From the IMG/VR virus record IMGVR_UViG_3300045999_011383: a DNA stretch of 64,000 nucleotides; one strand, 5' to 3'. The translations under genes and the position numbers were made by a program. The stretch's first letter is position 1. Each line of letters begins with the position of its first letter. The stretch is from a virus. Shown piece by piece: positions 25,275 to 64,000 of this stretch. The notes beneath the pieces are model-generated. The model was not told where the DNA came from. It made no database searches and was given only the letters and a program-made list of their open reading frames with translations.

Positions 25275-25703
25275 ATGAGTATTTTAAAAAATAAAATAAA
25301 GGTGCTAAAACACCAAATCCAAGCGTGCTTAAAATTAATAAGCAAAAAGATAAAAATGTACGTAGACAGACTGATTTGCTTGGAGACTGAACTGGAAAGA
25401 CTAGAGAACATGGAAACACCGGACTTTCCTGTTACTGAAAACGAAGTAAAAGAAGCTTTTGTAGCCATTGGTGGCTGTTTAAAACGGTATTGGAAACCAG
25501 AAATGGTTTCAATTATTCCCAAGTTAATAGGGAAAAATATACCCATAAGTGCGTGGGACTGGATGGTTCAGTTCCCAGAAGTTAAAGAAATGGAAAGACT
25601 GGGGTGGCGCGATCGCCATATCAAATACTGTATAGAAGCGGCTGACTGGCTGCTTAGGCAACGACAGAAGCCGAAAAGGTTTACCCAGTTAAGTTTGTTT
25701 TGA
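25275..25703 (+). CDS. hypothetical protein (142 aa); N-terminus paralogous to 33327-33752
   Basis: KVLKHQIQACLKLISKKIKMYVDRLICLETELERLE versus IRTIKHQIKATLKLIADGIKSYVDQLVTLEGDLEKLE. Confidence 0.65.
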   Translation: MSILKNKIKVLKHQIQACLKLISKKIKMYVDRLICLETELERLENMETPDFPVTENEVKEAFVAIGGCLKRYWKPEMVSIIPKLIGKNIPISAWDWMVQFPEVKEMERLGWRDRHIKYCIEAADWLLRQRQKPKRFTQLSLF

Positions 25704-44629: not shown

Positions 44630-45031
44630 ATGCAGTTTCCCAGCCATCTAGAGACACAGGAGGATATCCAACAACCCCAGAAGAACCCACTAGAACTTAC
44701 CGTGAAGCCCGGTGGTGAGTTTGCAGTCAAAGGTTCTATTCCTGAAGATATCCTTGACAGGATCATCACGTCATCTGACTATCACAAAGATAAACAGTAT
44801 CGCGCTGAAGAGCAAAGTCGGCGCGACGCAAAGTACCACAAAGATCAGCAGTATCGCATTGAACAACAGATTCAGCGCGATGCAACCATAACTAATATTT
44901 TCACTATTAGTTTTTTGGGGTTGACCTTTCTTGTATTAATTCTCTGTGCATATTTAAGTATCAACAAATCAACCAACCAGGAACATCAAAATGTTAGACA
45001 ACATATTCGGGGGACTTGCGTCCAGCAATAA
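44630..45031 (+). CDS. tail-anchored membrane protein (133 aa) with YHKD(K/Q)QYR repeat
   Basis: C-terminal TM segment ITNIFTISFLGLTFLVLILCAYL. Confidence 0.45.
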   Translation: MQFPSHLETQEDIQQPQKNPLELTVKPGGEFAVKGSIPEDILDRIITSSDYHKDKQYRAEEQSRRDAKYHKDQQYRIEQQIQRDATITNIFTISFLGLTFLVLILCAYLSINKSTNQEHQNVRQHIRGTCVQQ

Positions 45032-45431
45032 TAAAACTGATCTAAAAGGAATTGGAACTAATGTCACAAAAATTGGGGACATGGGTAGTTCTTTAGCAAG
45101 AATTAAAGAGAGAATGATCCTTCCAGAATCAGTTTCCGCCCAACAGGTTTTAAACGAAGCTAAACACACTGGAGAAATAGAAGCCCAATTAGAATTAGCA
45201 AGAGACATAGTTACCAGTAGAAGTCAGCAAATGGATCAGCTACTAAGGCTTCATGAGTTGAATGTTCAGCACACTCAAAAAGTAATGCAAGTTGATGAAC
45301 GTTTAAGAGGGATTGAAGCTAGTCACGGTAAAGTTGTATCTAGGTATCAACTAGGCGCAGCAGAAACTCAAGTTAACTTAAACGCCTACGAAACAGTCTA
45401 TACGGTTCAAGCTACGGAGATATTTTCATGA
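44991..45431 (+). CDS. coiled-coil protein (146 aa)
   Basis: AGGAA RBS and ATG; heptad-rich. Confidence 0.55.
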   Translation: MLDNIFGGLASSNNKTDLKGIGTNVTKIGDMGSSLARIKERMILPESVSAQQVLNEAKHTGEIEAQLELARDIVTSRSQQMDQLLRLHELNVQHTQKVMQVDERLRGIEASHGKVVSRYQLGAAETQVNLNAYETVYTVQATEIFS

Positions 45432-48687: not shown

Positions 48688-49506
48688 ATGTTTAGCCCAC
48701 AGCAAGTATTAGACTACATAAAAACGCGGGGTGGCGATGTTGAACTAAGGGATTTAAACCACTTTGGCAATAGTTTAATCAAAAGATTAGAAGCAGCAAG
48801 ATGTATTAAGATAACTGGTAGGGTAGGGGAACTTAAAGTATCTCTAATTTGCAGTAATTTTGACAGCAAGCAACAGAAAAATATTGAACCCACTGAAACC
48901 ATTGTTCAACCCCCAAAACACCCTGAGAAGGCAAAATTAAAAAAGCCTAAAACACCATATAAGCGACTTAAACCCAAAAAAGAAAAAGCCCCAGGGATAA
49001 AAACTAAGTGTAAATTGTTAAGAGAATCAATACTTAATGAAATCAAAAAGTCCAATAAACCCATGTCCACAGAAGACATAAGAACGGCACTAACTTTAAA
49101 TATGAGTGCAAAAAGGGTTTACTATCATTTAAAAAGTCTTGAAAAACAAAATTTAATCACCTCATTTGATTGGCATATTATCTTTTGGGTAAGTATAGAG
49201 AAAAAAGACTTATTGAACAAAGCTCCCGCAATGTATGTACCAAGAGACAGAAACAAAGCCCTTGTTTTAGAAGTTTTAAAAACCGCAGATAAAGCGTTGT
49301 CTGTAAAAGATGTTGTTGCATTGTTGTTCTTTAAATTGTCCGCATATACAGTCAGAAGAATATTGTCAATACTTATTCAGGACGGCATTGCTCAAAGCAA
49401 TGTTGTTCCTAGTAACAAAGAATTTTACTATGCTTGTAACGACAACACAAAAGCAATAATAAGTTTGCAAAAATTAAAAAAAACAAAGTTTTCTCCCCTG
49501 AATTAA
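48688..49506 (+). CDS. DNA-binding protein with three winged-helix-like repeats and a Lys-rich linker (272 aa)
   Basis: VLDYIKTRGG.VELRDL...; ILNEIKKSNKPMSTEDIRTALTLNMSAKRVYYHLKSLEKQNLI; VLEVLKTADKALSVKDVVALL...YTVRRILSILIQDGI. Confidence 0.55.
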   Translation: MFSPQQVLDYIKTRGGDVELRDLNHFGNSLIKRLEAARCIKITGRVGELKVSLICSNFDSKQQKNIEPTETIVQPPKHPEKAKLKKPKTPYKRLKPKKEKAPGIKTKCKLLRESILNEIKKSNKPMSTEDIRTALTLNMSAKRVYYHLKSLEKQNLITSFDWHIIFWVSIEKKDLLNKAPAMYVPRDRNKALVLEVLKTADKALSVKDVVALLFFKLSAYTVRRILSILIQDGIAQSNVVPSNKEFYYACNDNTKAIISLQKLKKTKFSPLN

Positions 49507-51002: not shown

Positions 51003-52139
51003 TTAATCTCTTATTTGCACAGGCATGGTTAAATATGTCATTTTTAATCCACTTAACGGAGTAAAAATAACTGGTTGCAACTGATGATTTAAGTGAATTT
51101 GAATCTCTGCGGAAGATAACTCTTTAAGTCCTTCCAAAAGATATTTAACATTAAACCCGACTTCGATATCAGTACCAGAAACTTGGGCTGGTATTGACTC
51201 TATAGCACTACCCACATCTTGAGTTTCGCAGGACAAAATTACTAGTTGATTGTCCCTATCTAAAGACAATTTGACAATATTGTTTTTCTGACTAGCTAAC
51301 ACAGAAATCCGTTCTAAGGTGCTAATAAATTGTTTTCTGTCTATTGTTACTTCTCGCTCAAATTGCCTGGGAATTAATTGATTATAAGCAGGATAATGAC
51401 CTTCTAATGTGCGACTGGTTAATCTTTGGTTTCCACGCACAAATACTACTTGTACCGGATCTATGTAAATTTCAACCTGTTCAGGAGCAGAACCCTGGCT
51501 TAACATTTTTTGCAATTCTCGTAACGCTTTAGCAGGAATTGTCACCTCTGATTCTTGATCCTCGTCTGACTCACGACTGGTTTCCACTACCGCTAATCTG
51601 TGTCCATCGGTAGAGGCAAATTCTATACTATCTCGCTTTAAGAAAAAATGCACACCAGTGAGAACCTGTTTAGTCTCATCAGAGCTAGTAGCAAATAAAG
51701 TACGTTGCAGTCCCTCGCTAAGTGCCGAAGCAGAAACCTCAATTGGTTCTACCTCGTGAACTGTTGGCAACTCAGGAAACTCATCAGCATTCATAGCACG
51801 GACTTGATAGCGACCGCTTTTAGGTTTTAAAGTGACGGTAATACCACCGCTTTCTTCTTCAGTGCTACTGATTGTAATGTCACCCTGGGGTAATTTAGAA
51901 ACAATATCTAAGAGTAGTTTAGAAGGTATGGTAATTTCACCACCCTGTAACACCTGAGCATCAAAAGTAGTACAAATGCCTAAACTTAAATCAAAGGAAG
52001 TTAATTCCACTTGATCAGTGTCGCTGTTAGCCTTTAACAAAATATTAGCAAGTACCGGATGAGTTGGGCGTGAAGGAACAGCACGACTAGCCAAAGAAAG
52101 ATTGGCGTTAAGTTCAGATTGAGAGCAAATTAATTTCAT
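51003..52139 (-). CDS. dnaN: DNA polymerase III beta sliding clamp
   Basis: MKLICSQSELNANLSLASRAVPSRPTHPVLANILLKA... over 378 aa with three-domain length, ending ...MTYLTMPVQIRD. Confidence 0.9.
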   Translation of the reverse strand: MKLICSQSELNANLSLASRAVPSRPTHPVLANILLKANSDTDQVELTSFDLSLGICTTFDAQVLQGGEITIPSKLLLDIVSKLPQGDITISSTEEESGGITVTLKPKSGRYQVRAMNADEFPELPTVHEVEPIEVSASALSEGLQRTLFATSSDETKQVLTGVHFFLKRDSIEFASTDGHRLAVVETSRESDEDQESEVTIPAKALRELQKMLSQGSAPEQVEIYIDPVQVVFVRGNQRLTSRTLEGHYPAYNQLIPRQFEREVTIDRKQFISTLERISVLASQKNNIVKLSLDRDNQLVILSCETQDVGSAIESIPAQVSGTDIEVGFNVKYLLEGLKELSSAEIQIHLNHQLQPVIFTPLSGLKMTYLTMPVQIRD

Positions 52140-52268
52140 GATCTGTGGGAATGTTACTCGTATTAATACTATATTTAATAATAATATTAATTGATTAGTT
52201 TGTCAATAATACTCTCATTTTATGGTATTATTTTTATAGAAATTAATAATTAAAATCAGCAAAAAACC

Positions 52269-53714
52269 ATGACCGAAAAACCAGGGGAATATACAGCCAA
52301 GTACAAGCCAACTCAATTAATTCAAGGAACTGGACAGACTGCATTGATAACAGGATGGACTATCAAAGAAGCAGTCCAAAAACATTTGAGTAACCATGAA
52401 TATGCAGTTATTGGGCAACTATACTCACCCACAAGAGGGATTAACTTAGTGGTTCGGAATCTGCTATTAAATCCTCATGTTAGGTACTTAGTAATTCTCA
52501 ATGGAACTAAGGAAGACAAAAACGCAGGTGGCTGTCAATGTTTAGCTGACTTTTTTCGTTATGGTTTCAATAAAGGTATTAGTGATATTGGTAGAAAAAC
52601 CTGGGTAATTTCTTCTTCTATTACTGGCTATATTGACATCGAGATTGATATGAATGTTTTAAAAAAATTGCGTGAGTCTGTAGAAATCAAGGAAGTACAA
52701 TCAATAGCCCAAGCTGTTGAAGCGGTCAGAGATTATGCAACTAAAAAACCCGTTGCACCTTGGGGAACACCCTTAGAATTTCCCATGAGTACAATTGAAT
52801 CAAATACCCTACCAGGACCCCTCTATGGTCACAGAATAGAGGGTAAAACCATTGCGGAAACCTGGGTAAAAATCATCCATAGAATTAAAACAACCGGGGT
52901 GATCCGACCCACTAGCCATGATGGAACGTGGCAGGAATTGATAGATTTAATGGCAATTATTACCAATGAGCCTGATGATTTTTACTTTCCTGAACCCAAC
53001 TATTTGCCAGTAGATAGAAGTTTTTTACAAGAATATATTTCTCAGATATTAGAGGACGCGCCTAGTCAAGAAGGGATAAAATACACCTATGGACAAAGGT
53101 TACGTTCCTGGTTTGGTAAAGACCAGGTTCGACAGGTAATTGAAAAGCTAACCCATGACATTAATTCCGCCAGGGCTGTAATGTCTCTGTGGGATATTAA
53201 AGAAGACAACGATGAATCTAATCCCCCCTGTTTAAATCATATTTGGGTAAGGGTAGTCAGCGGTGAACTGTCTTTAACCGCAACCTTTCGTAGTAATGAT
53301 ATGTTCTCAGCATGGCCAGCCAATGCCATGGGTTTAAGGGCTTTACAGAAATATATTTATAGTGCTTTATTGAGTTCCCATCAATCCCTCAAATTAGGTC
53401 CATTGATTACCATTAGTCAGAGCGCTCATATTTATGATGATTGTTTTGAGAATGTCAGCAAGGTAATCTCATCTCAGTATGGTAAGATTGCCAAAAACCA
53501 GGATTACTCTGATCCTGTGGGGAATTTTATTATTAGTAATCAAGAGGGTAAAGTCGTGGTTGAGCATACCACCCCTGGTTCAGGAGAGGTGGTTAATTGT
53601 TATTCAAATAAGTCCGCTTATAAGGTGTCACAAGAAATAATGAGAGATTGTCCAGGGTTGCAAAACTCCCATGCTATGTATTTGGGATGGGAGTTGTGCA
53701 AGTTAAAGTATTAA
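52269..53714 (+). CDS. ThyA-superfamily enzyme (thymidylate synthase / pyrimidine hydroxymethylase-like) with ~230-aa N-terminal extension (481 aa)
   Basis: NPPCLNHIWVRVVSGELSLTATFRSNDMFSAWPANAMGL aligns to the ThyA motifs PCH..xQFyV..g.LscqlyQRSxDxxLGxPFNIAsy (Cys nucleophile, R-S-x-D, Asn). Confidence 0.7.
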   Translation: MTEKPGEYTAKYKPTQLIQGTGQTALITGWTIKEAVQKHLSNHEYAVIGQLYSPTRGINLVVRNLLLNPHVRYLVILNGTKEDKNAGGCQCLADFFRYGFNKGISDIGRKTWVISSSITGYIDIEIDMNVLKKLRESVEIKEVQSIAQAVEAVRDYATKKPVAPWGTPLEFPMSTIESNTLPGPLYGHRIEGKTIAETWVKIIHRIKTTGVIRPTSHDGTWQELIDLMAIITNEPDDFYFPEPNYLPVDRSFLQEYISQILEDAPSQEGIKYTYGQRLRSWFGKDQVRQVIEKLTHDINSARAVMSLWDIKEDNDESNPPCLNHIWVRVVSGELSLTATFRSNDMFSAWPANAMGLRALQKYIYSALLSSHQSLKLGPLITISQSAHIYDDCFENVSKVISSQYGKIAKNQDYSDPVGNFIISNQEGKVVVEHTTPGSGEVVNCYSNKSAYKVSQEIMRDCPGLQNSHAMYLGWELCKLKY

Positions 53715-53829
53715 ATTGTGCTTTAGCGTTCTTGTTCTTCTTTCTTTTGTTCTTCCTTGAATGTTCGCCAATCATCGAGAACTTTAAACCATTTTTTCTC
53801 CAAACACCAAAAATTTAACTCTCAAAAAA

Positions 53830-54852
53830 CTAGGAAACCTTGATTTCAGCGATCGCTTCTTCTAAATGTTCCTGAATCACTAATCCCTCTCGCTCTAAAA
53901 TCGCTCGTTTAGCTGCATCTTGGGCAACCCTCACAGCTTGAGCCGCAGAAAAATCTTTCATCTGTTCAATAATTCTTGGCCAGTTGATAGATCCCACTTC
54001 AATTGCAGATAGTGTTTCCCTCAGTATAAATTCTAGTTCTTTTTCTCCCGGTTTGGGTACTGCAATCAGATCATCAAATCTCCTCCATAGGGCAGTATCC
54101 AAAGATTTATTCAAATTCGTAGCGGCTACCATAAGCCCAGAAGAAGGTTGATATTCATCCAAAATTTGCAAAAATGTATTTACTACTCGCTTAATTTCTC
54201 CCACTTCCTGAGAATCTTCTCGTGTCTTAGCAATTGAGTCACATTCATCTAAAAATAATAAACATGGATTTTTTGCAGCATCCTCAAATACCAGTCTTAA
54301 ATTACTGGCTGTCTCCCCTAAAAAAGACGACACCATTGCATCAAAACGTACTTTTAACAGTGGTAAACCTGTATTCCAGGCTAAACGTTCTGCTCCTAAT
54401 GTCTTTCCACACCCAGGCGGTCCATAAAGGAGAATTTTTTGCCGATAACGCAGCCCATGATGAGCTAGTCTATCTCTTGCTGCATACTCGCGCTCAATTC
54501 TTTGAAAACGCTTTTCAATTTTTTCAGGCAATACCATGTAATGACGTAGTTTATCCCTTGGTATGGTCGTTACCAAGGGAAGGTTAAAACGCTTACTGGT
54601 TGGTAATTCGCTTAAACCCTGTAAGTTTTCTCCTGTTGTTTGTGTGGCATTTGCAAGAAAGGAAACAGGTTTGATAGGGTCGGGAGATTGATCTCTGGGT
54701 TTCTTTTTAGCAATATTCTCTAACTGGTCAGCAAGGAGGGTATGCCCTTTACTGCGCTCTTCTTCTATGACCAGATATGCAAGTTTGTCAATCGCTTCTT
54801 GGTCTGAACTAGCGATCGCTCTGAAAAACCTTTTGAGAATCTCTCCCTTCAT
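53830..54852 (-). CDS. AAA+ ATPase (classic clade), 340 aa
   Basis: Walker A ILLYGPPGCGKT, Walker B CLLFLDECDS, second region of homology ...VAATNLNKSLDTALWRRFD. Confidence 0.8.
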   Translation of the reverse strand: MKGEILKRFFRAIASSDQEAIDKLAYLVIEEERSKGHTLLADQLENIAKKKPRDQSPDPIKPVSFLANATQTTGENLQGLSELPTSKRFNLPLVTTIPRDKLRHYMVLPEKIEKRFQRIEREYAARDRLAHHGLRYRQKILLYGPPGCGKTLGAERLAWNTGLPLLKVRFDAMVSSFLGETASNLRLVFEDAAKNPCLLFLDECDSIAKTREDSQEVGEIKRVVNTFLQILDEYQPSSGLMVAATNLNKSLDTALWRRFDDLIAVPKPGEKELEFILRETLSAIEVGSINWPRIIEQMKDFSAAQAVRVAQDAAKRAILEREGLVIQEHLEEAIAEIKVS

Positions 54853-54951
54853 ATTGCCTCTCTCTGCAAAAATAGAAGTTTCTTATGTATGTAGTACAAT
54901 TATACTCTATAACTCAGTGGATGACAAATTGTATCATGATCTTGCCTTGCA

Positions 54952-54965
54952 TTGCAACTGGGCTT
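54952..54965 (+). other. inverted 14-nt copy of the CRISPR repeat 3' end (TTGCAACTGGGCTT), anti-repeat candidate
   Basis: Exact reverse complement of AAGCCCAGTTGCAA from the repeat. Confidence 0.6.
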
Positions 54966-54968
54966 TGA

Positions 54969-55034
54969 CTTGCAATTAACCCAGTCCCTCAAGGTCGGCT
55001 TCTTGCAATTAACCCAGTTCCCCAAGTCCGGTTT
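54969..55034 (+). repeat. two abutting 33-nt degenerate CRISPR repeats without spacers
   Basis: cttgcaattaacccagtccctcaaggtcggctt / cttgcaattaacccagttccccaagtccggttt align to the 37-nt repeat with about 1/3 mismatches. Confidence 0.7.
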
Positions 55035-56171
55035 GCTTCAACTATCCTCAGTCCCTAAGCCCAGTTGCAAGTGTCAAGGGGTTTATTTTCGAAACCCTTA
55101 TATTTCCTACGTCGTTTCAACTATCCTCAGTCCCTAAGCCCAGTTGCAAGTGAAGGACGTGATTCTAATGCAGCAAAGAACATCTGTTTCAACTATCCTC
55201 AGTCCCTAAGCCCAGTTGCAAGACACATTCTTTATCTTTTAAATATAGCTTATACCATCTGTAGTTTCAACTATCCTCAGTCCCTAAGCCCAGTTGCAAG
55301 AACACCTTACCACCTTTAAGGTAAGACGGCACTTTAGGTTTCAACTATCCTCAGTCCCTAAGCCCAGTTGCAAGACAGAATTGAGAGAACTTTCAAGCCA
55401 TAAGAGAGTAGCGTTTCAACTATCCTCAGTCCCTAAGCCCAGTTGCAAGATTTTCAAAAATTTAAAAATGAATCTGGACATGAAGATGTTTCAACTATCC
55501 TCAGTCCCTAAGCCCAGTTGCAAGAATGCACATTAACAAAAAAAAACCATGAAAAACCGTTTCAACTATCCTCAGTCCCTAAGCCCAGTTGCAAGAAAAC
55601 TTATCAGATACTTAATAAGGCTATAGGTTAGTTTCAACTATCCTCAGTCCCTAAGCCCAGTTGCAAGCTCCCATTTATACAGCTTACTAGCAGCGCAAAT
55701 AGTTTCAACTATCCTCAGTCCCTAAGCCCAGTTGCAAGTCAAAAATCAACAGGAATTGGCCACTACTATTGAAGGATGTTTCAACTATCCTCAGTCCCTA
55801 AGCCCAGTTGCAAGATAAAGCCGTCCGGGGAGGCATGACTAATGAGGATGGTTTCAACTATCCTCAGTCCCTAAGCCCAGTTGCAAGTTGAGACAGTTAA
55901 ACCCAAGGTACTTTAACCTAGTTTCAACTATCCTCAGTCCCTAAGCCCAGTTGCAAGAAAGTATTAAAGAAATGCTCAAACTACCGGCATGTTTCAACTA
56001 TCCTCAGTCCCTAAGCCCAGTTGCAAGTTGCTACATTTACCATACTTATGGAAACTGTCAATGTTTCAACTATCCTCAGTCCCTAAGCCCAGTTGCAAGT
56101 TACTTTGTAAGACGTTATGTAAGACGGCGATGGAGTTTCAACTATCCTCAGTCCCTAAGCCCAGTTGCAAG
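55035..56171. CRISPR. CRISPR array, 16 x 37-nt repeat GTTTCAACTATCCTCAGTCCCTAAGCCCAGTTGCAAG
   Basis: Repeat starts 55035 (1 mismatch), 55114, 55186, 55264, 55338, 55413, 55488, 55559, 55631, 55702, 55778, 55851, 55921, 55991, 56063, 56135. Spacer lengths 42,35,41,37,38,38,34,35,34,39,36,33,33,35,35. Transcription direction unresolved. Confidence 0.97.
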
Positions 56172-56202
56172 TCCCGGCTTTCAAAAGCTTTATAAGTCAA
56201 GG

Positions 56203-56239
56203 GTTTCAAAGGCAATTCTGGCGGACCTGCTAAAAAATC
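56203..56239 (+). repeat. vestigial terminal repeat (only GTTTCAA conserved) after a 31-nt spacer-like segment
   Basis: gtttcaaaggcaattctggcggacctgctaaaaaatc versus the repeat. Confidence 0.4.
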
Positions 56240-56514
56240 TCATTTCAGCCGCTTAAATCAGCTTGGGTCTTTAAAAGAAACTGAGCGAAACTCTTGCAAT
56301 GTCATGGTTCTGGACTTTTGGCGAATGTCCAGGGTTTTTACCCTAGCTTTGATATGCCAAAAAGATGAGATAGTTGCCAGCCATAGTTCCGGCTGGTCTT
56401 TGGGGGTTGTCGCCTTCCCCCTTACTTTTTAGGGTAAAACCCTTACAAGTCATAAGCTAACATTACATTAGCTACCCGTCCAAACTGCGGTAATTTAATA
56501 TTAACCTAGTCCTA
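56240..56514. ncRNA. hairpin-dense 275-nt region between effector stop and array; candidate tracrRNA / omegaRNA-like scaffold
   Basis: GC-richer than the flanks. Stems CTGGAC-N11-GTCCAG (56310-56332, then GGTTTTT), CCAGCC-N8-GGCTGG, GGGGG-N10-CCCCC, AGGGT-AAA-ACCCT. Repeat-complementary patch at 56277-56300. Confidence 0.35.
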
Positions 56515-58389
56515 TTACTTTGTCAAGCGTTTTTTCTTAAATCTTTTAGGCTTTTGATAAACCAGCCTAACATTATGGTATTTGACCTCTCCCAATTCAA
56601 AACCACCATTCTGTTTATGATTTCTAGCAGCATTGGTATCAGCTTGTTGGGCAACGTCAAATAATTTACAGTCAGGGTTTTTACAGACAAATTCATACTG
56701 CGATCGCCTTTCCCCTTTCTGTCCGCAACAATGGCATATTTGAGAGCTATAATTAGCAGGTGGTTCATGGAAGTTGCCACCTCTATTTTCTATTTTTTGC
56801 TTGGTTTTAGCTTTCAAGTCACCTAAACATCTTTGTCTCATAATCCAGTTTAAACCACGTTTAGCAGATGCACCATTGTGAGCATATCCCACACCCTCTG
56901 GTAATGCTTTTGGATCTACTTGTTTAAGTAAGTTGGTAACTTGTGTATCCTCCCAAGATATATGTTCATAAGTGCGAGATAATCTTGTGGATAACTTGTG
57001 ATTAAAGGCATTAGAGGAATTAGCCCCGCGTTCGTGTAGACGGCTGATTTTTTGTTGTAACTTAGATTCATTCTTTGTCTTGATTCTAGAGGTCTTGTTG
57101 CCTAAGCTTTTCCATTTTTTATCATTAATTAATTCAGCGTTGTCTAGACGTGATTGTAATTCCTCAATGTGAATTGAGATCCGCTCCCTAGTAAGGTTAG
57201 GAAGGAATAAAGCCCCATGATCTGTAGACACTACAGCCTGTACCCCAGGGTCAATACCCGCACTCAGATTTTTACCTTTTAAAACTGATGACTGCTTAAT
57301 TTGTTGCTCAATGAATTTCAGTTTTGACTTGATATCTTGGTACTCTTCACTGTCTTCACCAAACTCTTTTTTTACCTTGGGTAACTTATTTGTTAGTACA
57401 GACTTTTCCTCTTGCAATGGGTGAGCAACTACAATATTAATGTAGTATCCTGACTGCTGTTTGGTAATCATGTATGTCCGTGGCAAAACCTGAGAAAGAT
57501 TCAATCTTTTTACCCAGTTTTTGTCAGCAATAGTGATGGGAGTAAGTCCGGTGACAGTAACTATGTTTTTGTCAATGTCAATCCTGTTAGGCGCACATTG
57601 ATTATTAGATAAAGTTGCAATCTTGTCTACATCTTTTTTGAATTTTGGCTTTCTACTGTTTATCCTTTTAGGATCTAAAAATGCCTTCCAAGATTCCTTA
57701 AAAAATGCTAACAGCCCGCCAATATAGTGGGAAGAAACCTGCAAGTCTGGTAAATTTTGGAATGCTCTTAAAGTATTTAATCCAGTCACGTTGTCAAGTT
57801 TTTCCAAAGTAGTCAGTTCCCTACCCTCATACTTTCCACTAGGGAATGTGCGGTATTTGTGAGGGACTATTTCTATCCGTTGCCAGGGCTTATCGCCTTT
57901 AACTAATTTGTACCCCTTGACGTAAATAACGCCTTTTTTGGTATTAACTGGAATATTGATATTTTCATCTCTCTTCCAATAATTCCCGCCTGTGGCTATT
58001 TGACAGGATAATCCTTCATAAGCACTATTTCCAAGCCTTAATGGCACAGGAATAATGCCTTCCAAGCTAAATGGACTCCATCTGGTAAATATCTCAAATT
58101 CTTTCTTGCTAACTAATTCCTGTTCTTTTTTAGACAGCTTAGGCTTATCCTTGGTGGAATAGTAATCTTTAACTAATTGTTGTTGCTCAGGTTTAAGTTT
58201 TTCCAGTTTTTCAGTAGCCTTGGTTAAATCTGCACTGCGTTTAGCAGCCCAAGCATACCAATCTACGCAGTGATTGTGTAGTTGGTTGGAAAGTGCTAAA
58301 TTCCACAGCCATGTTAATTCATCTAAGTAGCGATCGCACACAGCCGCCTGTTCTGATGAGAGTTTGATTTTAATCTTAATTGTCTTCAT
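56515..58389 (-). CDS. TnpB-like type V CRISPR effector (compact Cas12 / V-U-type), 624 aa
   Basis: GIDPGVQAV (RuvC-I D), HISWEDTQV (RuvC-II E), CHCC-x13-CKNPDC zinc ribbon, QQADTNAARN (RuvC-III D). Adjacent to the array. Confidence 0.8.
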   Translation of the reverse strand: MKTIKIKIKLSSEQAAVCDRYLDELTWLWNLALSNQLHNHCVDWYAWAAKRSADLTKATEKLEKLKPEQQQLVKDYYSTKDKPKLSKKEQELVSKKEFEIFTRWSPFSLEGIIPVPLRLGNSAYEGLSCQIATGGNYWKRDENINIPVNTKKGVIYVKGYKLVKGDKPWQRIEIVPHKYRTFPSGKYEGRELTTLEKLDNVTGLNTLRAFQNLPDLQVSSHYIGGLLAFFKESWKAFLDPKRINSRKPKFKKDVDKIATLSNNQCAPNRIDIDKNIVTVTGLTPITIADKNWVKRLNLSQVLPRTYMITKQQSGYYINIVVAHPLQEEKSVLTNKLPKVKKEFGEDSEEYQDIKSKLKFIEQQIKQSSVLKGKNLSAGIDPGVQAVVSTDHGALFLPNLTRERISIHIEELQSRLDNAELINDKKWKSLGNKTSRIKTKNESKLQQKISRLHERGANSSNAFNHKLSTRLSRTYEHISWEDTQVTNLLKQVDPKALPEGVGYAHNGASAKRGLNWIMRQRCLGDLKAKTKQKIENRGGNFHEPPANYSSQICHCCGQKGERRSQYEFVCKNPDCKLFDVAQQADTNAARNHKQNGGFELGEVKYHNVRLVYQKPKRFKKKRLTK

Positions 58390-59189
58390 GTCCGTCGTCT
58401 TCCTGTTGTTTTTGTCAATTGGTGTTGATGTAAATAGCTGTTTTGTGCTATATTGTTAGTTGCCGCTCCCCCAAACTAGCGGCTAAGTACCTGGTAATAG
58501 AAACGTCGTTATTGGTACTAACCGCGTTTTTTGGTATTTATTTAGGATAGCACAAATTTGGTAATTTAAAAATATTTTTTATATTAAAAATTAGACATTA
58601 ACTGATAGTTGCATACACCCCAAATCTTTACCCCAGTCATGTTTTAACTAATTCCTGCTTTCTTTTGTAAGACAATAATGTCAGACAATGTAAACAATGT
58701 AGACAAATAATCTTGTTTGAAAACAGCCACAGAACCCGTCATTTTAACCACTGGGTTCTTATTACTTATTGACAATTAGTAGATTAATAAATGTCTGCTG
58801 ATTAGGCAGACGGTATTGCACAGGTGACAACCGAGTTATTAGTATAGCATCATAGCAAGTTATTTATACAACAATTAAACAATTGCAAAATTCCGTATAC
58901 TTTAGGGTTGGCACTGGAAAACTATAAGGATATTATAGGGATATAGAGTATCTAAGCGGAATGCCCTTCATAAGAGGATTTGAGAAAAGAACTAACACCA
59001 CAGATATCTGTTGTTCCTGAGACAAAGGTGCGCCTGCTGCGCTTAAACACTATTACAGAAAAAACAAATAGACTTTGTTTCAGAATTTATAAAGCAATTT
59101 TAAAGCGTACTTATTGCATAAATAAAAAAATACCCACTAAAGCGTGTTAGTGGGTAGTGGAAATAAGCTACTTCACTGGAATACTTGCA

Positions 59190-59441
59190 TTAAATTAACT
59201 CCAGCAAAATTGTTAATGCGGACTGGATACTGTTAATAGCATCTTTGATTAATGCCCGCTTTTGGGTTGCGGGTTTGTTTGGACTAGAAACTAATAACTC
59301 ATCATTAGCTATTAGTTTCATGAATTTGGAAATGTTGGGGTCTTCACCCCACAGGCAGCCAAACTCCAAAGCTTTATTCTCTAGCTTGGCTTTGTCTTCC
59401 ATTGAGATAGAGAGCGTGATGCTCTCTTGTTTTCTACTCAT
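59190..59441 (-). CDS. ribbon-helix-helix-like small protein (83 aa)
   Basis: ESITLSISMEDKAKLENKALEFG (beta-strand then helix). 4-nt overlap with the upstream ORF. Confidence 0.5.
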   Translation of the reverse strand: MSRKQESITLSISMEDKAKLENKALEFGCLWGEDPNISKFMKLIANDELLVSSPNKPATQKRALIKDAINSIQSALTILLELI

Positions 59442-59947
59442 AGAGAAATATTCCCTTTATTTTCAATCCACCATTTTGCGGACGTGGGAATTTTCTTATT
59501 GTTTTTTAGTGCGATCGCAACATCATCTATTGCTCTAACTGCTATAGATTTAGCCCATTTAATCTGCTTTTCAGAGCCTTCAAACTTTAGCGACTCTACA
59601 TAATTAAGAGCATCTTCTCTGTTGCTTTCTGAGACTGGATCTTCTTCCTCGATCTCATAATCGCACGGAATACTATCTAAATTCTTTAAAACAGCACTGA
59701 AAATTATTTCATTTATAGGTACAGAAGAGAGAATAAAACTCTCTTCTCTGATTACCTCTAGAACTAAATCTTCAGCAATAGATTGATAGGTTTCACCTGG
59801 CTCTAACTGGAACTCAGAATTGCTCACTAAATATTCCACTACCTTTCTAACGGCTTTCTGGCATTCTGGATTTCTAAAATCCACACGAATCATTTGAAGC
59901 CCAGAAGTGTCAAATTTATTTAAAAGCCTTCTTTGTTTGATAGCCAT
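59438..59947 (-). CDS. hypothetical acidic protein (169 aa)
   Basis: ORF track. First gene of a 2-gene operon behind an early-type upstream element. Confidence 0.55.
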   Translation of the reverse strand: MAIKQRRLLNKFDTSGLQMIRVDFRNPECQKAVRKVVEYLVSNSEFQLEPGETYQSIAEDLVLEVIREESFILSSVPINEIIFSAVLKNLDSIPCDYEIEEEDPVSESNREDALNYVESLKFEGSEKQIKWAKSIAVRAIDDVAIALKNNKKIPTSAKWWIENKGNISL

Positions 59948-60013
59948 GATACAATACCTTTAAACGATGTTTTACTTAGAGGCTTGGGCTTGCTCCCCTT
60001 GCCTCTATATTTA

Positions 60014-60080
60014 TATCATTACACAATATTTTATCCTTGTCAATAGCAAAGTGTCCGTATTTTAAATATTTTGTACTGAA
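60014..60080 (-). promoter_or_regulatory. promoter (minus) TTGACA-N16-TGTGTAATGA with the early-cassette upstream element
   Basis: On the + strand, tgtcaa at 60038-60043 and TGTACTGAA at 60072-60080 (= TTCAGTACA on minus), as upstream of P2/P7/P9/P10/P11. Confidence 0.5.
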
Positions 60081-60480
60081 CTTTTGAAGTTGTAAATTGT
60101 ACAACATAAAAAGAAGTAAACGACGTAACCGACATCAACTAAAACAGCAACTAAGAAAATTAGATGCGATCGCACTTAAACAAATCCATAGCAGCTTGGG
60201 GGGATAAACCCGACATATCTAAGCTTTTAAGTAGATAGCCCAACGGGAAATACTGCTTTCTTGTTCTGATAAACCCACCAAAAAACAAAGTCCTTTAATT
60301 AAAGAAGCGATCGCGCTTATTCAAAAAGGATTGTCAATTTTAATAGAATTAATTTAGTTTTTAAAGCGCTCTTGACAGGGCGTTTTTTGTTGTTTAAAAA
60401 CTTAATTTAATTGTTGATTAATTGTTAATCAATGTGTTATACTAAATCAAGATTAAATTACTTTAGTTTGGGAAAGTAAA

Positions 60481-60999
60481 GTGACAACCAATCATTACGG
60501 AATGCCACAGACACGAGACAAGTGTTATGGCGTGGCTGCTTGTTTAAGTTATTGGGTTTTTAAATGCCGTGACAGGAAACGTAGTCCAGCCATGGGAACT
60601 AAAACCTGGACATATTTGGAATCTTCTATCAAGAATTGTGCAGAAATATCCACAAATTTAGAAGATTATCTACAAAATCTTTGTGATAAATTGATATCGC
60701 AATTAAGACCTGTAGAGCTAACCAAAATTATTCAACCAACTCAGAGAATACTGAGAATTAATGAAGATGCAACTGAAATCAAGGAACTACCAATAGATCG
60801 AAGTTTGGTTTTTATGGGGTGGCTTGACTTGCTTGCCGATATTGAACCCCACGGATTTAGTGAGTGGGACGTAATGGAATTGTTAAGAACAAAAACAGGA
60901 GTTATTCAAGTAATTTGTCGTCTGCGATTTGAAGAAGATAGAAGTGTGGGGCTTGATGAACCAGAAGAATTTATTGAGGTAGAGGTGACAAATGTTTGA
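60481..60999 (+). CDS. small helical protein, Cas11-like position in the Csf operon (172 aa; start uncertain)
   Basis: GTG start. 8-nt overlap with the Cas7-like gene. Size and predicted helical composition fit a small subunit. No motif proof. Confidence 0.35.
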   Translation: MTTNHYGMPQTRDKCYGVAACLSYWVFKCRDRKRSPAMGTKTWTYLESSIKNCAEISTNLEDYLQNLCDKLISQLRPVELTKIIQPTQRILRINEDATEIKELPIDRSLVFMGWLDLLADIEPHGFSEWDVMELLRTKTGVIQVICRLRFEEDRSVGLDEPEEFIEVEVTNV

Positions 61000-62125
61000 T
61001 AATTATAATATTTTTGACAGAGAGAAATTAACCCTGCATTGCTTAATCACGCTACAGACACCATTGAGCCATATAGGCGAAGTGTCTGGCAATGTTAGCA
61101 ATCTGAAAACTACTAAGTTATTGGACTTTGAAGGTAATCCTAGAAGTGTTTTTGTCTATTCTGGTAATGCAATCAGAAACGGTATTTTGCGCCGGGTAGG
61201 AGTGGCAGCAGCACTCACGGAATTAGGAATTAAGGTAAATCCAGATACTCACCATACAATGTTTGCTGGCGGGCGAATTGATGGGGGGACAGCTTCGGAT
61301 ATGGAACTGGATAAAAAGATCCGGGTCTTTATGCCTTGGCTATCAGTATTGGGAACAGCCAAACCCATAGGTGTTTTTGGGACTAAAGAAGCCCAGATGG
61401 TAGCTGGTAGAAGTAATATTGGCAGTGGTTATTTAGTCTGCTATGAGTCAGCAGAATACGTTTACAACCAACTCCCAGCAGTTTTACCACCGGAAATACA
61501 GCCAACTATGGCCTTATTAATTGAAGCTAAAACCAGACTTTCTTCCGACCCTTTTGTATCCACAAAATCAGAAGACTTAACTAACTGGAATCAAGCAAAA
61601 TCAGAATGTTTGCCACTGATCAAAAAAGCAATGAAAACATGGACTGAATACTTAACAATTGATCAGACAACTCGCAGAGATAGCACTTTAGATCCCAACT
61701 TACTCAAATTTCTACCATCAGAAGTACAAGCACAATTAACAGGTGATGGTAAAACTAAAGAAAAAACTAAATCAGATCAGATGATTGCGTCTGACAGGCT
61801 GATCATGCCCGGTGCTAAACTTTATTCTCGATGGGATCTAACTTGTACTCAAATAGAAGAGGGATGGATATTTGATACTTTACTCAAGTTTTCAGAATCA
61901 CCTTATATTGGTGGTAAAGGCAATCGTGGCAATGGCAGGGTTCATCTTGATTTCTGGTTTCAGTCTGACCATGAACGGGGGTTATTGTGTTCTCTGAAAG
62001 ATGGAATTATGGGAGATAGGTTTCTTAATTCCCATCAAAAATATCGGGAATATATCAATCAGTATCAGCAGTTTTTAAGTGAAGCAAAAACATCCAAGGA
62101 ATTAAGGAAGTTGTTAGGTGAATAA
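60992..62125 (+). CDS. Cas7-like RAMP (Csf2-like), 377 aa
   Basis: LTLHCLITLQTPLSHIGE, VYSGNAIRNGILRRVG, HTMFAGGR, C-terminal Gly-rich loop IGGKGNRGNGRVHL. Confidence 0.6.
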   Translation: MFDNYNIFDREKLTLHCLITLQTPLSHIGEVSGNVSNLKTTKLLDFEGNPRSVFVYSGNAIRNGILRRVGVAAALTELGIKVNPDTHHTMFAGGRIDGGTASDMELDKKIRVFMPWLSVLGTAKPIGVFGTKEAQMVAGRSNIGSGYLVCYESAEYVYNQLPAVLPPEIQPTMALLIEAKTRLSSDPFVSTKSEDLTNWNQAKSECLPLIKKAMKTWTEYLTIDQTTRRDSTLDPNLLKFLPSEVQAQLTGDGKTKEKTKSDQMIASDRLIMPGAKLYSRWDLTCTQIEEGWIFDTLLKFSESPYIGGKGNRGNGRVHLDFWFQSDHERGLLCSLKDGIMGDRFLNSHQKYREYINQYQQFLSEAKTSKELRKLLGE

Positions 62126-62804
62126 TTTAAAAGTCACTGCATATTTGTCTACACCGATTGGTGTCTATGACAATTGGAGTCCTTCTTTGGAGGGACTTCT
62201 TACCTATAGATTACTAGAAGAAAATAATCTATTGTCTCCCAATCCCACCGCAGAGCAAGTAGCAAAGGTTCAGAATTTTTTAGTAAATGAATTACCGCTT
62301 AAACAGAATACAATAATGAATGATAAGTATTTCTGTGTAAGTTCACCTTGCTATGTGGTTCAAGGTGAGGCTACTGATAAATATCGGAAAAGATGGGACA
62401 ATCACGAAAATAATCTGAACTGGGGAAAAAGAAAGCCTAAATTCTTGACGGGTGAAGGTGCAGAAAAGTCCTATGATTTACCGCTATACACTCGTTTAAC
62501 AAATAGTATTAGTTGGTTTGTAACAGGCGACAGAACCAAGATTGACGCTCTATTGTCACCTGTTACCCATATTCAGAAAAAACGAAGTTATGGCAATGGT
62601 GAAGTTAAGCAATGGCAACTAGAAATAGTTTATGACGACTATCATTTGTGGCGAGATAATAAACTAATGCGTCCTATGCCCGTGAAGTTAATATCACAAA
62701 AAATAGATAATCCTCAAATGATTTGGGGATGGAAAAGCCCGTCTTGGTTAGCAGAAAATAAAGAACTTTGTTATATGCCAAAGGACAATGTGATTTATGC
62801 TTAG
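62118..62804 (+). CDS. Cas5-like RAMP (Csf3-like), 228 aa
   Basis: KVTAYLSTPIGV...SPSLEGLLTYRL, C-terminal Gly-rich loop IQKKRSYGNGEVKQW. Confidence 0.55.
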   Translation: MNNLKVTAYLSTPIGVYDNWSPSLEGLLTYRLLEENNLLSPNPTAEQVAKVQNFLVNELPLKQNTIMNDKYFCVSSPCYVVQGEATDKYRKRWDNHENNLNWGKRKPKFLTGEGAEKSYDLPLYTRLTNSISWFVTGDRTKIDALLSPVTHIQKKRSYGNGEVKQWQLEIVYDDYHLWRDNKLMRPMPVKLISQKIDNPQMIWGWKSPSWLAENKELCYMPKDNVIYA

Positions 62805-63543
62805 TAATGGCTCTGGGGTTCAATACCCTTGGTTGAAAAAGAAAATTACTAAAGCTATTAATTTCATTAATCAGTGGCTAGAACAATGCAACTATCAGGT
62901 TTATGCAAGTATTTCCGGTGGTAAAGATAGCTTAGTAATGTCTCATTTGATCAGGAAAGTTTACCCTGATTGCCCGTTAGTTTGGGTAAATCAAGGGCTG
63001 TTAGCAGAATGGGATGATTGTATTGAATTATTGGAATACTTGAAAACTCAAAACTGGAACATTATTGAGCTTTGTCCAGTTCGTGATTTATGGCATTTAT
63101 ACATAGATCACGGAGTTCCGTTAGAGGGTACGATGGATACAAAAGTAGATAAATTAATCAACCAAAAATTGATTTATGATCCATTGCAAGAATACCAAGA
63201 AATCAACAATATCAAAGGGTACGCATGGGGAATAAGGAAGCAAGAAAGCAAAAACAGAGCATTTTATCTTAACAAGTACGGTGAAGTTCATGAACTAAAA
63301 AATGGGTTAATTTGTTGCTCGCCTATTGCTCACTGGACTACAGAAGAAATATGGCAGTACATAGATATGTACTCACTCAAATACCCAGCAATTTATGACA
63401 TTAACAAAATGACAGTCAGGAATGGTTGCCCGATTGGAACTACAGGAGCAAACTGGGGTAGATTAGCTGAATTAAAAAGATATTACCCCAATATTTACAA
63501 CCAATTTGTTGATAAATTCCCACAAATATCGAACTATGTCTAA
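62797..63543 (+). CDS. PAPS-reductase-family (CysH-like) PP-loop protein, 248 aa
   Basis: VYASISGGKDSLVMSHL (SGGxDS PP-loop), ...GIRKQESKNR..., CSPIAHWTTEEIWQYI. Confidence 0.75.
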   Translation: MLSNGSGVQYPWLKKKITKAINFINQWLEQCNYQVYASISGGKDSLVMSHLIRKVYPDCPLVWVNQGLLAEWDDCIELLEYLKTQNWNIIELCPVRDLWHLYIDHGVPLEGTMDTKVDKLINQKLIYDPLQEYQEINNIKGYAWGIRKQESKNRAFYLNKYGEVHELKNGLICCSPIAHWTTEEIWQYIDMYSLKYPAIYDINKMTVRNGCPIGTTGANWGRLAELKRYYPNIYNQFVDKFPQISNYV

Positions 63544-64000
63544 TTGCTACCTTTGCGCTAAACCAGCATCAAATCCACTAGAATTATCCAATACTTTCAC
63601 CATGCACTCATCGGCTAAGTGTCCAGACTCTAAGCTGCTGTGCGATCGCTGCTATTCTACAATTTCTGGTAATCAAAAGCAGTTATGGTATTGGAATGAA
63701 GGTAAAAATAAGTGGTCAAAACTGTGGGGACGATCTTTGTCCAGGGTGTACCAAGGCGATACTTTAATAGCACCAATAATTAAAGGCACTCACACTGAAG
63801 GCAAAGATACTTTCAGTGTGGTTAGAAACTTATTGACGCGGGTAGAAATCAGGGAATATTTATTAAATCCTCCTGAGCCACCGTTCACTATCGCTATAGC
63901 AGAATCAGGACAAAAACACATTATCCCATGGGCATTAGAAGCGCGTAGCTGTAACTTTTTTCCAATTCAATTTGAGTTAGACACGGTTTATATTGACAAC
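63536..64000 (+). CDS. zinc-finger protein, Csf1 (Cas8-like)-type candidate; 3' end beyond window
   Basis: Own translation, open to the window end: MSNCYLCAKPASNPLELSNTFTMHSSAKCPDSKLLCDRCYSTISGNQKQLWYWNEG...IAIAESGQKHIIPWALEAR... CxxC-x28-CxxC. 8-nt overlap with the CysH-like gene. Confidence 0.45.
   Translation, partial: MSNCYLCAKPASNPLELSNTFTMHSSAKCPDSKLLCDRCYSTISGNQKQLWYWNEGKNKWSKLWGRSLSRVYQGDTLIAPIIKGTHTEGKDTFSVVRNLLTRVEIREYLLNPPEPPFTIAIAESGQKHIIPWALEARSCNFFPIQFELDTVYIDN

Follow-up and report, generated by a model that had tools for sequence, protein, structure and literature searches.

Type IV-B is the most widespread subtype of the CRISPR (short palindromic repeats that are clustered and regularly interspaced)-Cas systems whose function is still unknown, and in the sole IV-B complex that has been solved, random RNA was bound and Csf1, Csf3 and CysH could not be placed in the structure (PMC7937560, PMC8175902). 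The question is raised in a particular form by the viral IMG/VR record IMGVR_UViG_3300045999_011383, a stretch of 64,000 nucleotides (nt) which is called the window below, always at its full length: what does a type IV-B module do on a cyanophage, and with which partners does it work? Positions 60481-64000 of the window, the Csf module region, hold five overlapping open reading frames (ORFs), which make up a complete effector operon of type IV-B, coupled in translation, with the gene order cas11-csf2-csf3-cysH(like)-csf1. The most interesting part of this module is a new feature, a predicted tail for binding the DNA sliding clamp at the C-terminus of Csf1.

The Csf operon and its products

The five ORFs lie on the + strand and are chained by four overlaps of exactly 8 nt each, with the sequences ATGTTTGA, GTGAATAA, ATGCTTAG and ATGTCTAA in the order of the junctions. 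The first gene, cas11 (60481-60999), encodes the type IV small subunit, of 172 amino acids (aa) from a GTG start. A gene caller chose an alternative ATG at 60502, which gives 165 aa; the longer form seems plausible because an N-terminal peptide, NHYG(M/I)PQTRDK, is conserved in relatives. It is followed by csf2 (60992-62125), coding for a long form (377 aa) of the type IV Cas7 backbone protein, and by csf3 (62118-62804), coding for the type IV Cas5 (228 aa, GTG start). The fourth gene, cysH-like (62797-63543), encodes a Cas-type CysH of the PP-loop ATP pyrophosphatase fold (248 aa) with the motif SGGKDS. The last one, csf1 (63536-64000), codes for the zinc-finger large subunit, a small Cas8-like protein, and is cut by the end of the window. 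A metagenomic contig, L001, is 100% identical to window positions 60305-64000 and adds 3.4 kb, from which the full-length Csf1 of 252 aa could be read; its gene ends at the window-equivalent position 64294.

A preliminary description of this DNA, made from its letters and ORFs, had read these frames as a questionable Cas11 and as Cas7, Cas5, CysH-like and Csf1-like genes in one coupled unit. The ORF listing and the junction sequences bear out the four overlaps, and every gene assignment holds in the profile and structure searches that the description had proposed as checks: PADLOC type IV profiles match all four Csf/Cas11 proteins, Pfam PAPS_reduct matches the CysH-like protein, and the predicted folds of Csf2 and Csf1 retrieve type IV complex chains first. 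The extension of the contig, also proposed there, gave the complete fifth ORF and the genes downstream of it.

The strongest profile matches are those of Csf3 (Csf3_0_IV, 2.5e-40 over the full length, together with a precomputed Pfam match to PF27782 Csf3 and a match to TIGR03116 at 2.7e-9, under its cutoff) and Csf2 (Csf2_0_IV, 9e-35; TIGR03115, 29 bits, under the cutoff of 130). Csf1 is matched by Csf1_0_IV at 6.6e-16 on the fragment and at 5e-21 on the full protein, over residues 2-217. The NCBIfam models cas7_csf2, cas5_csf3 and cas8u_csf1 give significant matches that are far under the curated cutoffs, so that Csf2, Csf3 and Csf1 are divergent members of their families. Cas11 matches the typeIV_Cas11 profiles at 2.5e-6, 1.2e-4 and 5.7e-3, and its conservation among relatives is 67-98%. 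A profile of the cyanophage Cas11 matches the ORF at the cas11 position beside csf2 in the distant IV-B loci L026-L030 (4e-4 to 1.7e-9) and finds no match among PDB sequences.

For Csf2, a search of the PDB by sequence only returned just a type IV-A Csf2, with an E-value of 0.84, and structure prediction was needed. The AlphaFold2 (AF2) model, with a predicted local distance difference test (pLDDT) score of 74.8, was compared with the PDB by Foldseek: the top 33 matches are chains of type IV-A complexes (8s35, 8rc2, 7xg0; best E-value 1e-10), followed by the IV-B complex 7jhy (3.8e-5) and then by type III Csm3. The motifs quoted in the preliminary description are all present, and their residues are mostly invariant in an alignment of 26 Csf2 sequences of 60-90% identity: P24-G29 of TPLSHIGE, Y56-N63 of YSGNAIRN, F91-R95 of FAGGR and G307-G315 of GGKGNRGNG. 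The model also contains a helical insert of about 60 aa, at residues ~150-215. A profile search of 1.84 billion cluster representatives recovered 437 Csf2-family clusters, of which about twenty are long forms of 380-445 aa; most of the other distant representatives align in two stretches and skip the middle of the profile, so the insert is specific to the clade.

The full-length Csf1 model has a pLDDT of 87, and the only real matches found with it by Foldseek are 7xg1_A and 8rc3_G, both from type IV-A effector complexes (probabilities 1.0 and 0.99). In the homologue alignment, the CxxC...CxxC motif of Csf1 shows no variation at C36 and C39 and a conservation of at least 90% at C4 and C7.

The C-terminal tail of Csf1

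The full-length Csf1 ends in ...NPVQLSLF-COOH (tail peptide ...SPDKSNPVQLSLF). The pentapeptide QLSLF is the full consensus of the beta-clamp-binding motif, QL[SD]LF or QLxLF, which is usually found at the C-terminus (PMC4549789, PMC12309361). In the alignment of Csf1 homologues, the last conserved helix is followed by a variable stretch rich in Pro, Glu, Lys and Thr and then by QLSLF at the very end of the protein. The tail falls outside the residues covered by the Csf1 profile and comprises 35 residues predicted to be disordered, with a mean pLDDT from residue 221 of 41-54 versus about 95 in the core.

The frequency of this ending was determined in the 120 best Csf1 homologues and in 269 control proteins from the same metagenomes. 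Thirty-eight of the homologues end in Q[LM]x[LIM][FLW], 22 of them exactly in QLSLF, and none of the controls does. The homologues fall into two length classes: short proteins of about 216-235 aa, which stop soon past the last helix, and proteins extended by a variable tail of 21-41 aa. The tail is absent from all six complete Csf1 proteins sampled from distant bacterial loci, and in this respect the Csf1 of the phage differs from those of the sampled canonical IV-B loci.

A candidate docking partner is encoded in the window itself, namely the phage DnaN beta sliding clamp (51003-52139, - strand), recognized by three Pfam DNA_pol3_beta domains (4e-34, 5e-28 and 2e-25) and by phrog_947 (4e-71). 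A scan of single IMG/VR proteins, aimed at the co-occurrence of the phage DnaN with a tail-bearing Csf1, returned only near-identical copies on other contigs. From the motif we infer that the Csf complex may be tethered to clamps on replicating DNA. Clamp-tethered proteins of mobile elements are known, such as TnsE of Tn7, a transposition factor. The transposases of insertion sequences that end in QLxLF resemble Csf1 in carrying a C-terminal clamp-binding pentapeptide on a mobile-element protein, by which they are directed to replicating DNA (PMC4549789), with the difference that they are transposition factors, whereas here the predicted motif lies on the large subunit of a CRISPR-type ribonucleoprotein (RNP). 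In the type IV literature searched, the phrase "clamp-binding motif" was not found.

The same ending occurs once more in the window. An ORF at 25275-25703 (+ strand, 142 aa), which has no family match and is unrelated to Csf1, ends in ...RFTQLSLF; the QLSLF end is kept in its 90-92% identical homologues (L036-L039) and is absent from a 45% identical one (L040).

The CysH-like protein

The CysH-like protein matches Pfam PAPS_reduct at 6e-18. Compared with the cysH-like gene product of a canonical IV-B locus in a metagenome-assembled genome (MAG) of Bacillota, L030, it is 32% identical end to end (E-value 6e-39), versus a match of 4e-5 to the housekeeping CysH, or 3'-phosphoadenosine 5'-phosphosulfate (PAPS) reductase (1sur), in which the alignment extends only up to residue 207. 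The Cas-type CysH has been described by an SGGxDS PP-motif and by the absence of the catalytic cysteine (PMC8175902). The SGGKDS motif of the present protein and its sole C-terminal cysteine, which is not conserved (Pro in L020 and L021), fit this description.

Two types of CysH-like protein are found in the clade, one with SGGKDS and 248 aa and the other with SWGKDS (SWGTDS in L021) and 234-243 aa. The S, G, D and S of SGGKDS are invariant in both, and the identity between the two types is only 24-30%. They have been exchanged between modules whose Csf2 proteins are 95% identical: L004, L008 and L012 carry the second type, followed by an extra gene (coding for a 230-aa protein or a cupin) and then by csf1, versus the first type in the window, L010 and L014. 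In L004, four further ORFs, one on the + and three on the - strand, are inserted between csf2 and csf3.

With an intact PP-loop and no conserved catalytic cysteine, the enzyme probably spends ATP on adenylating a substrate held by the RNP and does not reduce PAPS; the adenylation of such a substrate by Cas-type CysH was proposed earlier (PMC8175902).

Gene order in the clade

At least 300 metagenomic homologues of Csf2 were found, and the 120 listed are 61-99% identical to it. That gene order and proteins are kept at 60-99% identity across these homologues is taken as a sign of selection. The loci whose Csf2 is at least 57% identical are treated here as the cyanophage-like clade. Every cyanophage-like locus examined (L004-L022, L024, L025) has the order cas11-csf2-csf3-cysH-csf1. 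The typical IV-B order is csf1-cas11-csf2-csf3, with csf1 first and cysH beside (PMC7937560), and the profiles of the cyanophage proteins recover the canonical csf1-cas11-csf2-csf3-cysH in the Bacillota MAG loci L027-L030, whose Csf2 is 26-27% identical. The "embedded" place of cysH is thus the result of a shift of csf1, which has left the front of the operon and now stands at its 3' end, behind cysH. The position of cysH inside the operon, pointed out in the preliminary description, is therefore a conserved feature of the clade rather than a one-off, and the csf1-last order is a stable trait of a widespread clade of freshwater cyanophages.

The exchange of CysH types and the stacking of several gene sets in one locus suggest that csf3-cysH-csf1 is a replaceable "foot" sub-module on a constant cas11-csf2 backbone. 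The stacking is seen in L021 (IMGVR_UViG_3300016466_000585, positions 1699-8665), which reads cas11-csf2 and then csf3-cysH(type 2)-csf3-csf1-csf3-cysH(type 1)-csf1, with two csf1 genes, one short and one whose product ends in QLLLF, as if one and the same filament had a choice of foot modules. A solo relative was seen in Cylindrospermopsis raciborskii virus RM-2018a, in which gp058 (L003, 14187-14906), annotated as a hypothetical protein, has a Csf3-like C-terminal half (type IV Cas5/Csf3 profiles 6e-14; 32% identical to the Csf3 of the window). It lies 3 kb from the Cas12u2-like "transposase" of that phage, which is without Csf2.

Comparison with described type IV systems

All testable defining features of type IV-B were found in this module, and only the gene order departs from the typical one. 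The IV-B system of Mycobacterium sp. JS623 (7JHY) and the canonical loci share with it the csf1, cas11, csf2, csf3 and cysH-like families, the carriage on a mobile element, and the lack of an own array, Cas6, helicase and adaptation genes. The differences are that csf1 stands last behind cysH, that Csf2 bears the helical insert, that the window Csf2 is only 23-27% identical to that of bacterial IV-B loci, and that the carrier is a tailed cyanophage, in contrast to the actinobacterial megaplasmid of Mycobacterium JS623.

Type IV-A (7XG0, 8RC2, 8RC3) provides the best structural matches for Csf2 and Csf1 and is a nuclease-free system engaged in mobile-element conflict. It has DinG and Cas6/Csf5, which are absent here from the families listed in the window scan, as well as its own array, which the present operon is without, and it lacks CysH and also Cas11, which is present in IV-B and IV-C. 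A closer parallel among viruses is Fuxivirus, a virus of Bathyarchaeia that likewise encodes a IV-B system with a cysH-like gene adjoining csf3, for which a role in counter-defence or mobile-element conflict was proposed (PMC10848311). It differs from the present phage in that it infects archaea and possesses a mini-array of two repeats, and no Cas12-type neighbour or clamp motif has been reported in it.

Viral IV-B systems have thus been published already, in Fuxivirus and in prophages (PMC7038947), and "IV-B on a phage" is by itself not new. The literature searched contained no report of IV-B in cyanophages, nor of an island that pairs IV-B with a V-U2-type system. What distinguishes this module is a combination of features: the permuted operon, the Csf2 insert, the swappable CysH types, the neighbouring array of Cas12u2 type and, above all, the Csf1 tail.

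The carrier phage and its accessory island

The preliminary description had attributed the DNA to a cyanophage. The phage part of this claim is supported by the large terminase (phrog_979, 9e-140), a prohead protease/capsid protein, a D5-type primase and DnaN. The cyanobacterial part is supported by 37 occurrences of the HIP1 octamer GCGATCGC in the window versus 0.3 expected, and by the company of the module elsewhere. Relatives of the module are carried by viral contigs of IMG/VR and by contigs of 95-131 kb. NblA or a pRha-domain protein is encoded on some of these as well, and many short contigs with such relatives were binned as Dolichospermum. In addition, the Cas12-like gene of the window (see below) shares 45% identity with "transposase" genes of Cylindrospermopsis phages, which measure 101-104 kb, and 29% with the V-U2 effector of the Aphanizomenon phage CL131 (PMC6293099), so that by this gene the closest described relatives are phages of about 100-113 kb. 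The window has a GC content of 38.5% and no tRNA genes, and it also encodes a ParB-methyltransferase fusion and a ThyA-like enzyme. It is not part of a described genome: megablast of 52000-64000 against GenBank phages and PLSDB plasmids gave no match, tblastn of Csf2 found no homologue in GenBank phages (CL131 included), and Foldseek of the Csf2 model against the BFVD viral structures gave nothing under an E-value of 0.03.

The module sits in a variable accessory island of this Nostocales-type cyanophage. Within 3.1 kb past csf1, L001 carries on the minus strand a Dcm-type C5 methylase, two small ORFs and an AIPR-like gene; the methylase (PADLOC MTase_II, 2.4e-45) and the AIPR-like, or abortive-infection, protein lie at 4255-7036 of that contig, past the end of the window, and a 30% identical AIPR-like gene is also found 3' of the Csf module in L008/L009. 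PADLOC profiles for IetA, a defence ATPase, match one window ORF at 2.5e-79, the likely source being an AAA+ ATPase of 340 aa (53830-54852, - strand; Pfam AAA 6.9e-31) between the ThyA-like gene and the array described below. The content of the island, namely the Dcm methylase, the AIPR-like protein, the IetA-like ATPase and a Cas12u2-like system, speaks for conflicts in which the host or rival elements are the opponents.

Other genes of the window were noticed in passing. Adjoining dnaN, a 481-aa protein (52269-53714, + strand) joins a thymidylate-synthase-like part to a pterin-binding DUF4346 domain, and elsewhere a thymidylate kinase and a protein with an ADP-ribosyltransferase (ART) domain are encoded; these genes are hints of modified nucleotides or host takeover. 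Just 5' of cas11, a consensus scan places a candidate promoter-like site at 60414-60443 (+ strand; TTGATT-18-TATACT, with an extended TG), which lies 3' of a terminator-like hairpin at 60363-60386. This hairpin parts the site from the stretch 60097-60357 (+ strand), which contains a small ORF (36 aa) that looks like a frameshifted copy of a 98-aa gene, intact in L010, L012 and L013. Further downstream in the same stretch, another frame encodes a peptide similar to the C-terminus of the divergently oriented 83-aa ORF at 59190-59441 (- strand), with 49% identity over about 43 aa. A search of 54000-64000 with Rfam (E-value up to 0.1) found no known RNA family in or beside the operon.

The neighbouring array and its effector

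The module had been called arrayless. This is true of the operon itself, but an array in which 15 spacers alternate with the 16 copies of a 37-nt repeat (55035-56171; - strand, as inferred from relatives) lies only 4.3 kb upstream of cas11, and no copy of the repeat occurs elsewhere in the window. Next to the array is an ORF of 624 aa (56515-58389, - strand), outside the Csf module, whose product contains a zinc finger and the D/E/D motifs of RuvC. When the 62 other window ORFs were scanned with PADLOC (E-value up to 1e-5), there was one Cas12u2 match, of 2.9e-56, which was assigned to this ORF through a precomputed Pfam match (Cas12f1-like_TNB) and the profile behaviour of a related protein in L013. 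The gene product is thus a putative V-U2-type, TnpB-derived effector. It is divergent, being 28-29% identical to a canonical Cas12u2 that scores 3.4e-165.

The array starts 343 nt past the stop of the Cas12-like gene here, and the spacing is 286-343 nt, on the same strand, across the window and the four related loci in which it can be read (L010/L011, L012 and L016). In those same loci its position relative to the Csf genes varies in distance (3-6.6 kb), side and strand, and the Csf loci L008/L009, L013 and L017-L022 have no array on either side within the available flanks of up to 10 kb. Because its spacing and strand are constant with respect to the Cas12-like gene and variable with respect to Csf, the array was assigned to the Cas12u2-like effector. 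Such an arrangement is seen in vB_AphaS-CL131, a Nostocales phage of about 113 kb in which a TnpB-like V-U2 effector stands beside an array (PMC6293099); unlike the window, CL131 yielded no Csf2 homologue. By synteny, the module thus appears independent of the adjacent V-U2-type array. The preliminary description had expected a phage copy of the module next to a separate array to be a good model for what IV-B does; the model is less direct than hoped, since the array is tied to the Cas12u2-like gene.

The array appears to be in use. When 82 spacers of five related arrays were compared with all the collected loci, only spacer 2 of the window (55151-55185) gave a non-trivial match, to a 523-aa gene of related phage contigs (33/35 in L011, 29/30 in L013), and in L013 this target is the canonical Cas12u2 mentioned above. 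The array therefore seems to be aimed at rival phages, including a rival's cas12u2 gene.

Three other observations concern this region and the scan. At 54950-55034, beyond the degenerate terminal repeat, there are two or three spacer-less degenerate repeat-like units (CTTGCAATTAACCCAGT...), which are similar to the other of the array types in L011, the second one (CTTGCAATTAACTCAGTTCCCCAAGTCCGGTTTCACC). The units may be left over from an array that has been lost, or may form an anti-repeat or tracr (trans-activating CRISPR RNA)-like element. Weak matches to Cas1 and Csa3 at 44991-45431 and 48688-49506 (2e-4 and 2e-5) were rejected as cas genes. A "Csx1" match was rejected as evidence of a CARF protein, as the Csx1 profile also matches Cas12u2-type proteins and the match most likely came from the Cas12-like ORF itself.

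A further reading of the locus is that the Csf proteins cooperate with this co-located system. The array at 55035-56171 would supply the Csf complex with CRISPR RNAs (crRNAs), after their processing by either the Cas12u2-like protein or a Cas6 of the host, for RNA-guided targeting of rival phages or the host, and the whole would be a hybrid V-U2/IV-B locus. The distance from the array to cas11 is inside the 10-kb window used for assigning arrays (PMC7038947), and by a plain rule of proximity the module would count as array-associated. In 7 of the 11 distinct architectures of the loci, a Cas12u2-type gene is no more than 10 kb away from Csf, and this proximity may stem either from a common hotspot or from a link in function. 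Read on the strand of the Cas12-like gene, the repeats have (G/A)TTGAAAC as their end, which we take to resemble the 8-nt handle of class 1 systems. The borrowing of crRNAs by IV-B has been proposed in the literature (PMC8175902, PMC10848311), and the apparent use of the array would agree with it. Against this stand the fixed spacing of the array to the Cas12-like gene, the Csf loci with no array in their flanks, and the absence of Cas6 from the listed families of the window scan. Besides, phages whose Csf3 and Csf1 are 76-89% identical have quite different repeat families, and crRNAs that were co-expressed with the IV-B complex of Mycobacterium were not loaded into it (PMC7937560). Shared guides are therefore regarded as rather unlikely.

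Mechanism and alternative explanations

The explanation that best accounts for the locus, and one that is judged reasonably probable, is that of a IV-B operon whose Csf complex has no array of its own, docks on the sliding clamp through the Csf1 tail, uses CysH for adenylation and serves in conflicts between genetic elements. By analogy with the Mycobacterium IV-B complex, Csf2 and Cas11 would polymerise on RNA, with Csf3 and Csf1 capping the filament. Through the Csf1 tail, the complex would then probably be docked on a DnaN clamp of the phage or of the host, and this docking would enrich it where DNA is being, or has just been, replicated. The likely role of the module, like that of other genes of the island, would be conflict with the host or with rival mobile elements.

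A more specific version, in which the IV-B system of this clade is replisome-associated, the Csf1 tail docking the RNA-loaded filament on the clamp and CysH adenylating, and thereby modifying or marking, nucleic acid at replicating DNA, can only be advanced tentatively, as one possibility that is more doubtful than the general explanation. If it were true, a rival element in replication, or the chromosome of the host, could be told apart or disabled through marking by a replisome-docked CysH.

Several points weigh against the favoured explanation. About two thirds of the Csf1 homologues, as well as the six distant bacterial Csf1 proteins, are without the tail, and clamp docking therefore cannot be essential to IV-B in general. 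The proposed clamp interaction rests on a short linear motif, and the RNP and enzyme activities are likewise predicted from sequence. The support for Cas11 is modest and the weakest of the five assignments. The 7 architectures of 11 with a Cas12u2-type neighbour may leave room for a functional link to the array. With respect to missing partners, DinG/RecD, Cas6/Csf5 and Cas1/Cas2/Cas4 are absent from the families listed for the 62 window ORFs, a list that covers 25 of the 30 PADLOC families matched, and a 146-aa ORF (44991-45431) is weakly Cas1-like (~2e-4).

As another alternative, the module might be an anti-CRISPR sponge: the Csf filament would soak up host crRNAs or small guide RNAs without sequence preference and so weaken the I-D and III systems of Nostocales hosts, with a secondary part for CysH and the clamp motif. 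Such a function was already proposed for IV-B on mobile elements (PMC7038947, PMC8175902), and the RNA bound by the Mycobacterium complex is heterogeneous but has a uniform length (PMC7937560). The island, with its Dcm methylase, AIPR-like gene and IetA-like ATPase, has the look of a counter-defence context, and Aphanizomenon flos-aquae, the host of CL131, has III-B and I-D systems with spacers that target this phage (PMC6293099). However, a sponge leaves unexplained the near-invariant CysH-like partner, the swapping of its two types and the conserved clamp-binding tail, and five coupled genes are costly compared with single-protein anti-CRISPRs (PMC7038947). This idea is considered improbable, slightly more so than shared guides. 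Finally, a non-CRISPR sulfur or DNA-modification pathway, for instance a Dnd- or BREX-like PAPS-reductase system with unrelated partners, which the preliminary description had named as the refuting scenario, finds some echo in weak matches of the CysH-like protein to BrxP (5e-12), DndC (2.7e-4) and SspD (4.9e-3), but was rejected as extremely unlikely, since the four partners match type IV Csf/Cas11 profiles, the structure searches with the Csf2 and Csf1 models lead to chains of type IV complexes, canonical IV-B loci contain the same five families together and no Dnd, Ssp or BREX partner turned up in the window scan.

Implications

The IV-B identity of the module is solid and would be expected by specialists; the putative link to the clamp is the specific lead. 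The binding of Csf1 to the clamp, if true, would link IV-B to DNA replication, and would provide a first mechanistic handle on this subtype and the first CRISPR-type effector coupled directly to a sliding clamp. The clade also offers natural variation in the form of two CysH types, stacked csf3-cysH-csf1 sets and Csf1 proteins with and without the tail, a variation that points to csf3-cysH-csf1 as a functional sub-module. In addition, with IV-B beside an active-looking Cas12u2-type array that holds a spacer against a rival's cas12u2, the sharing of guides becomes directly testable. The module is common in freshwater metagenomes, as the number of Csf2 homologues indicates, and it may matter ecologically for bloom-forming Nostocales and for their phages.

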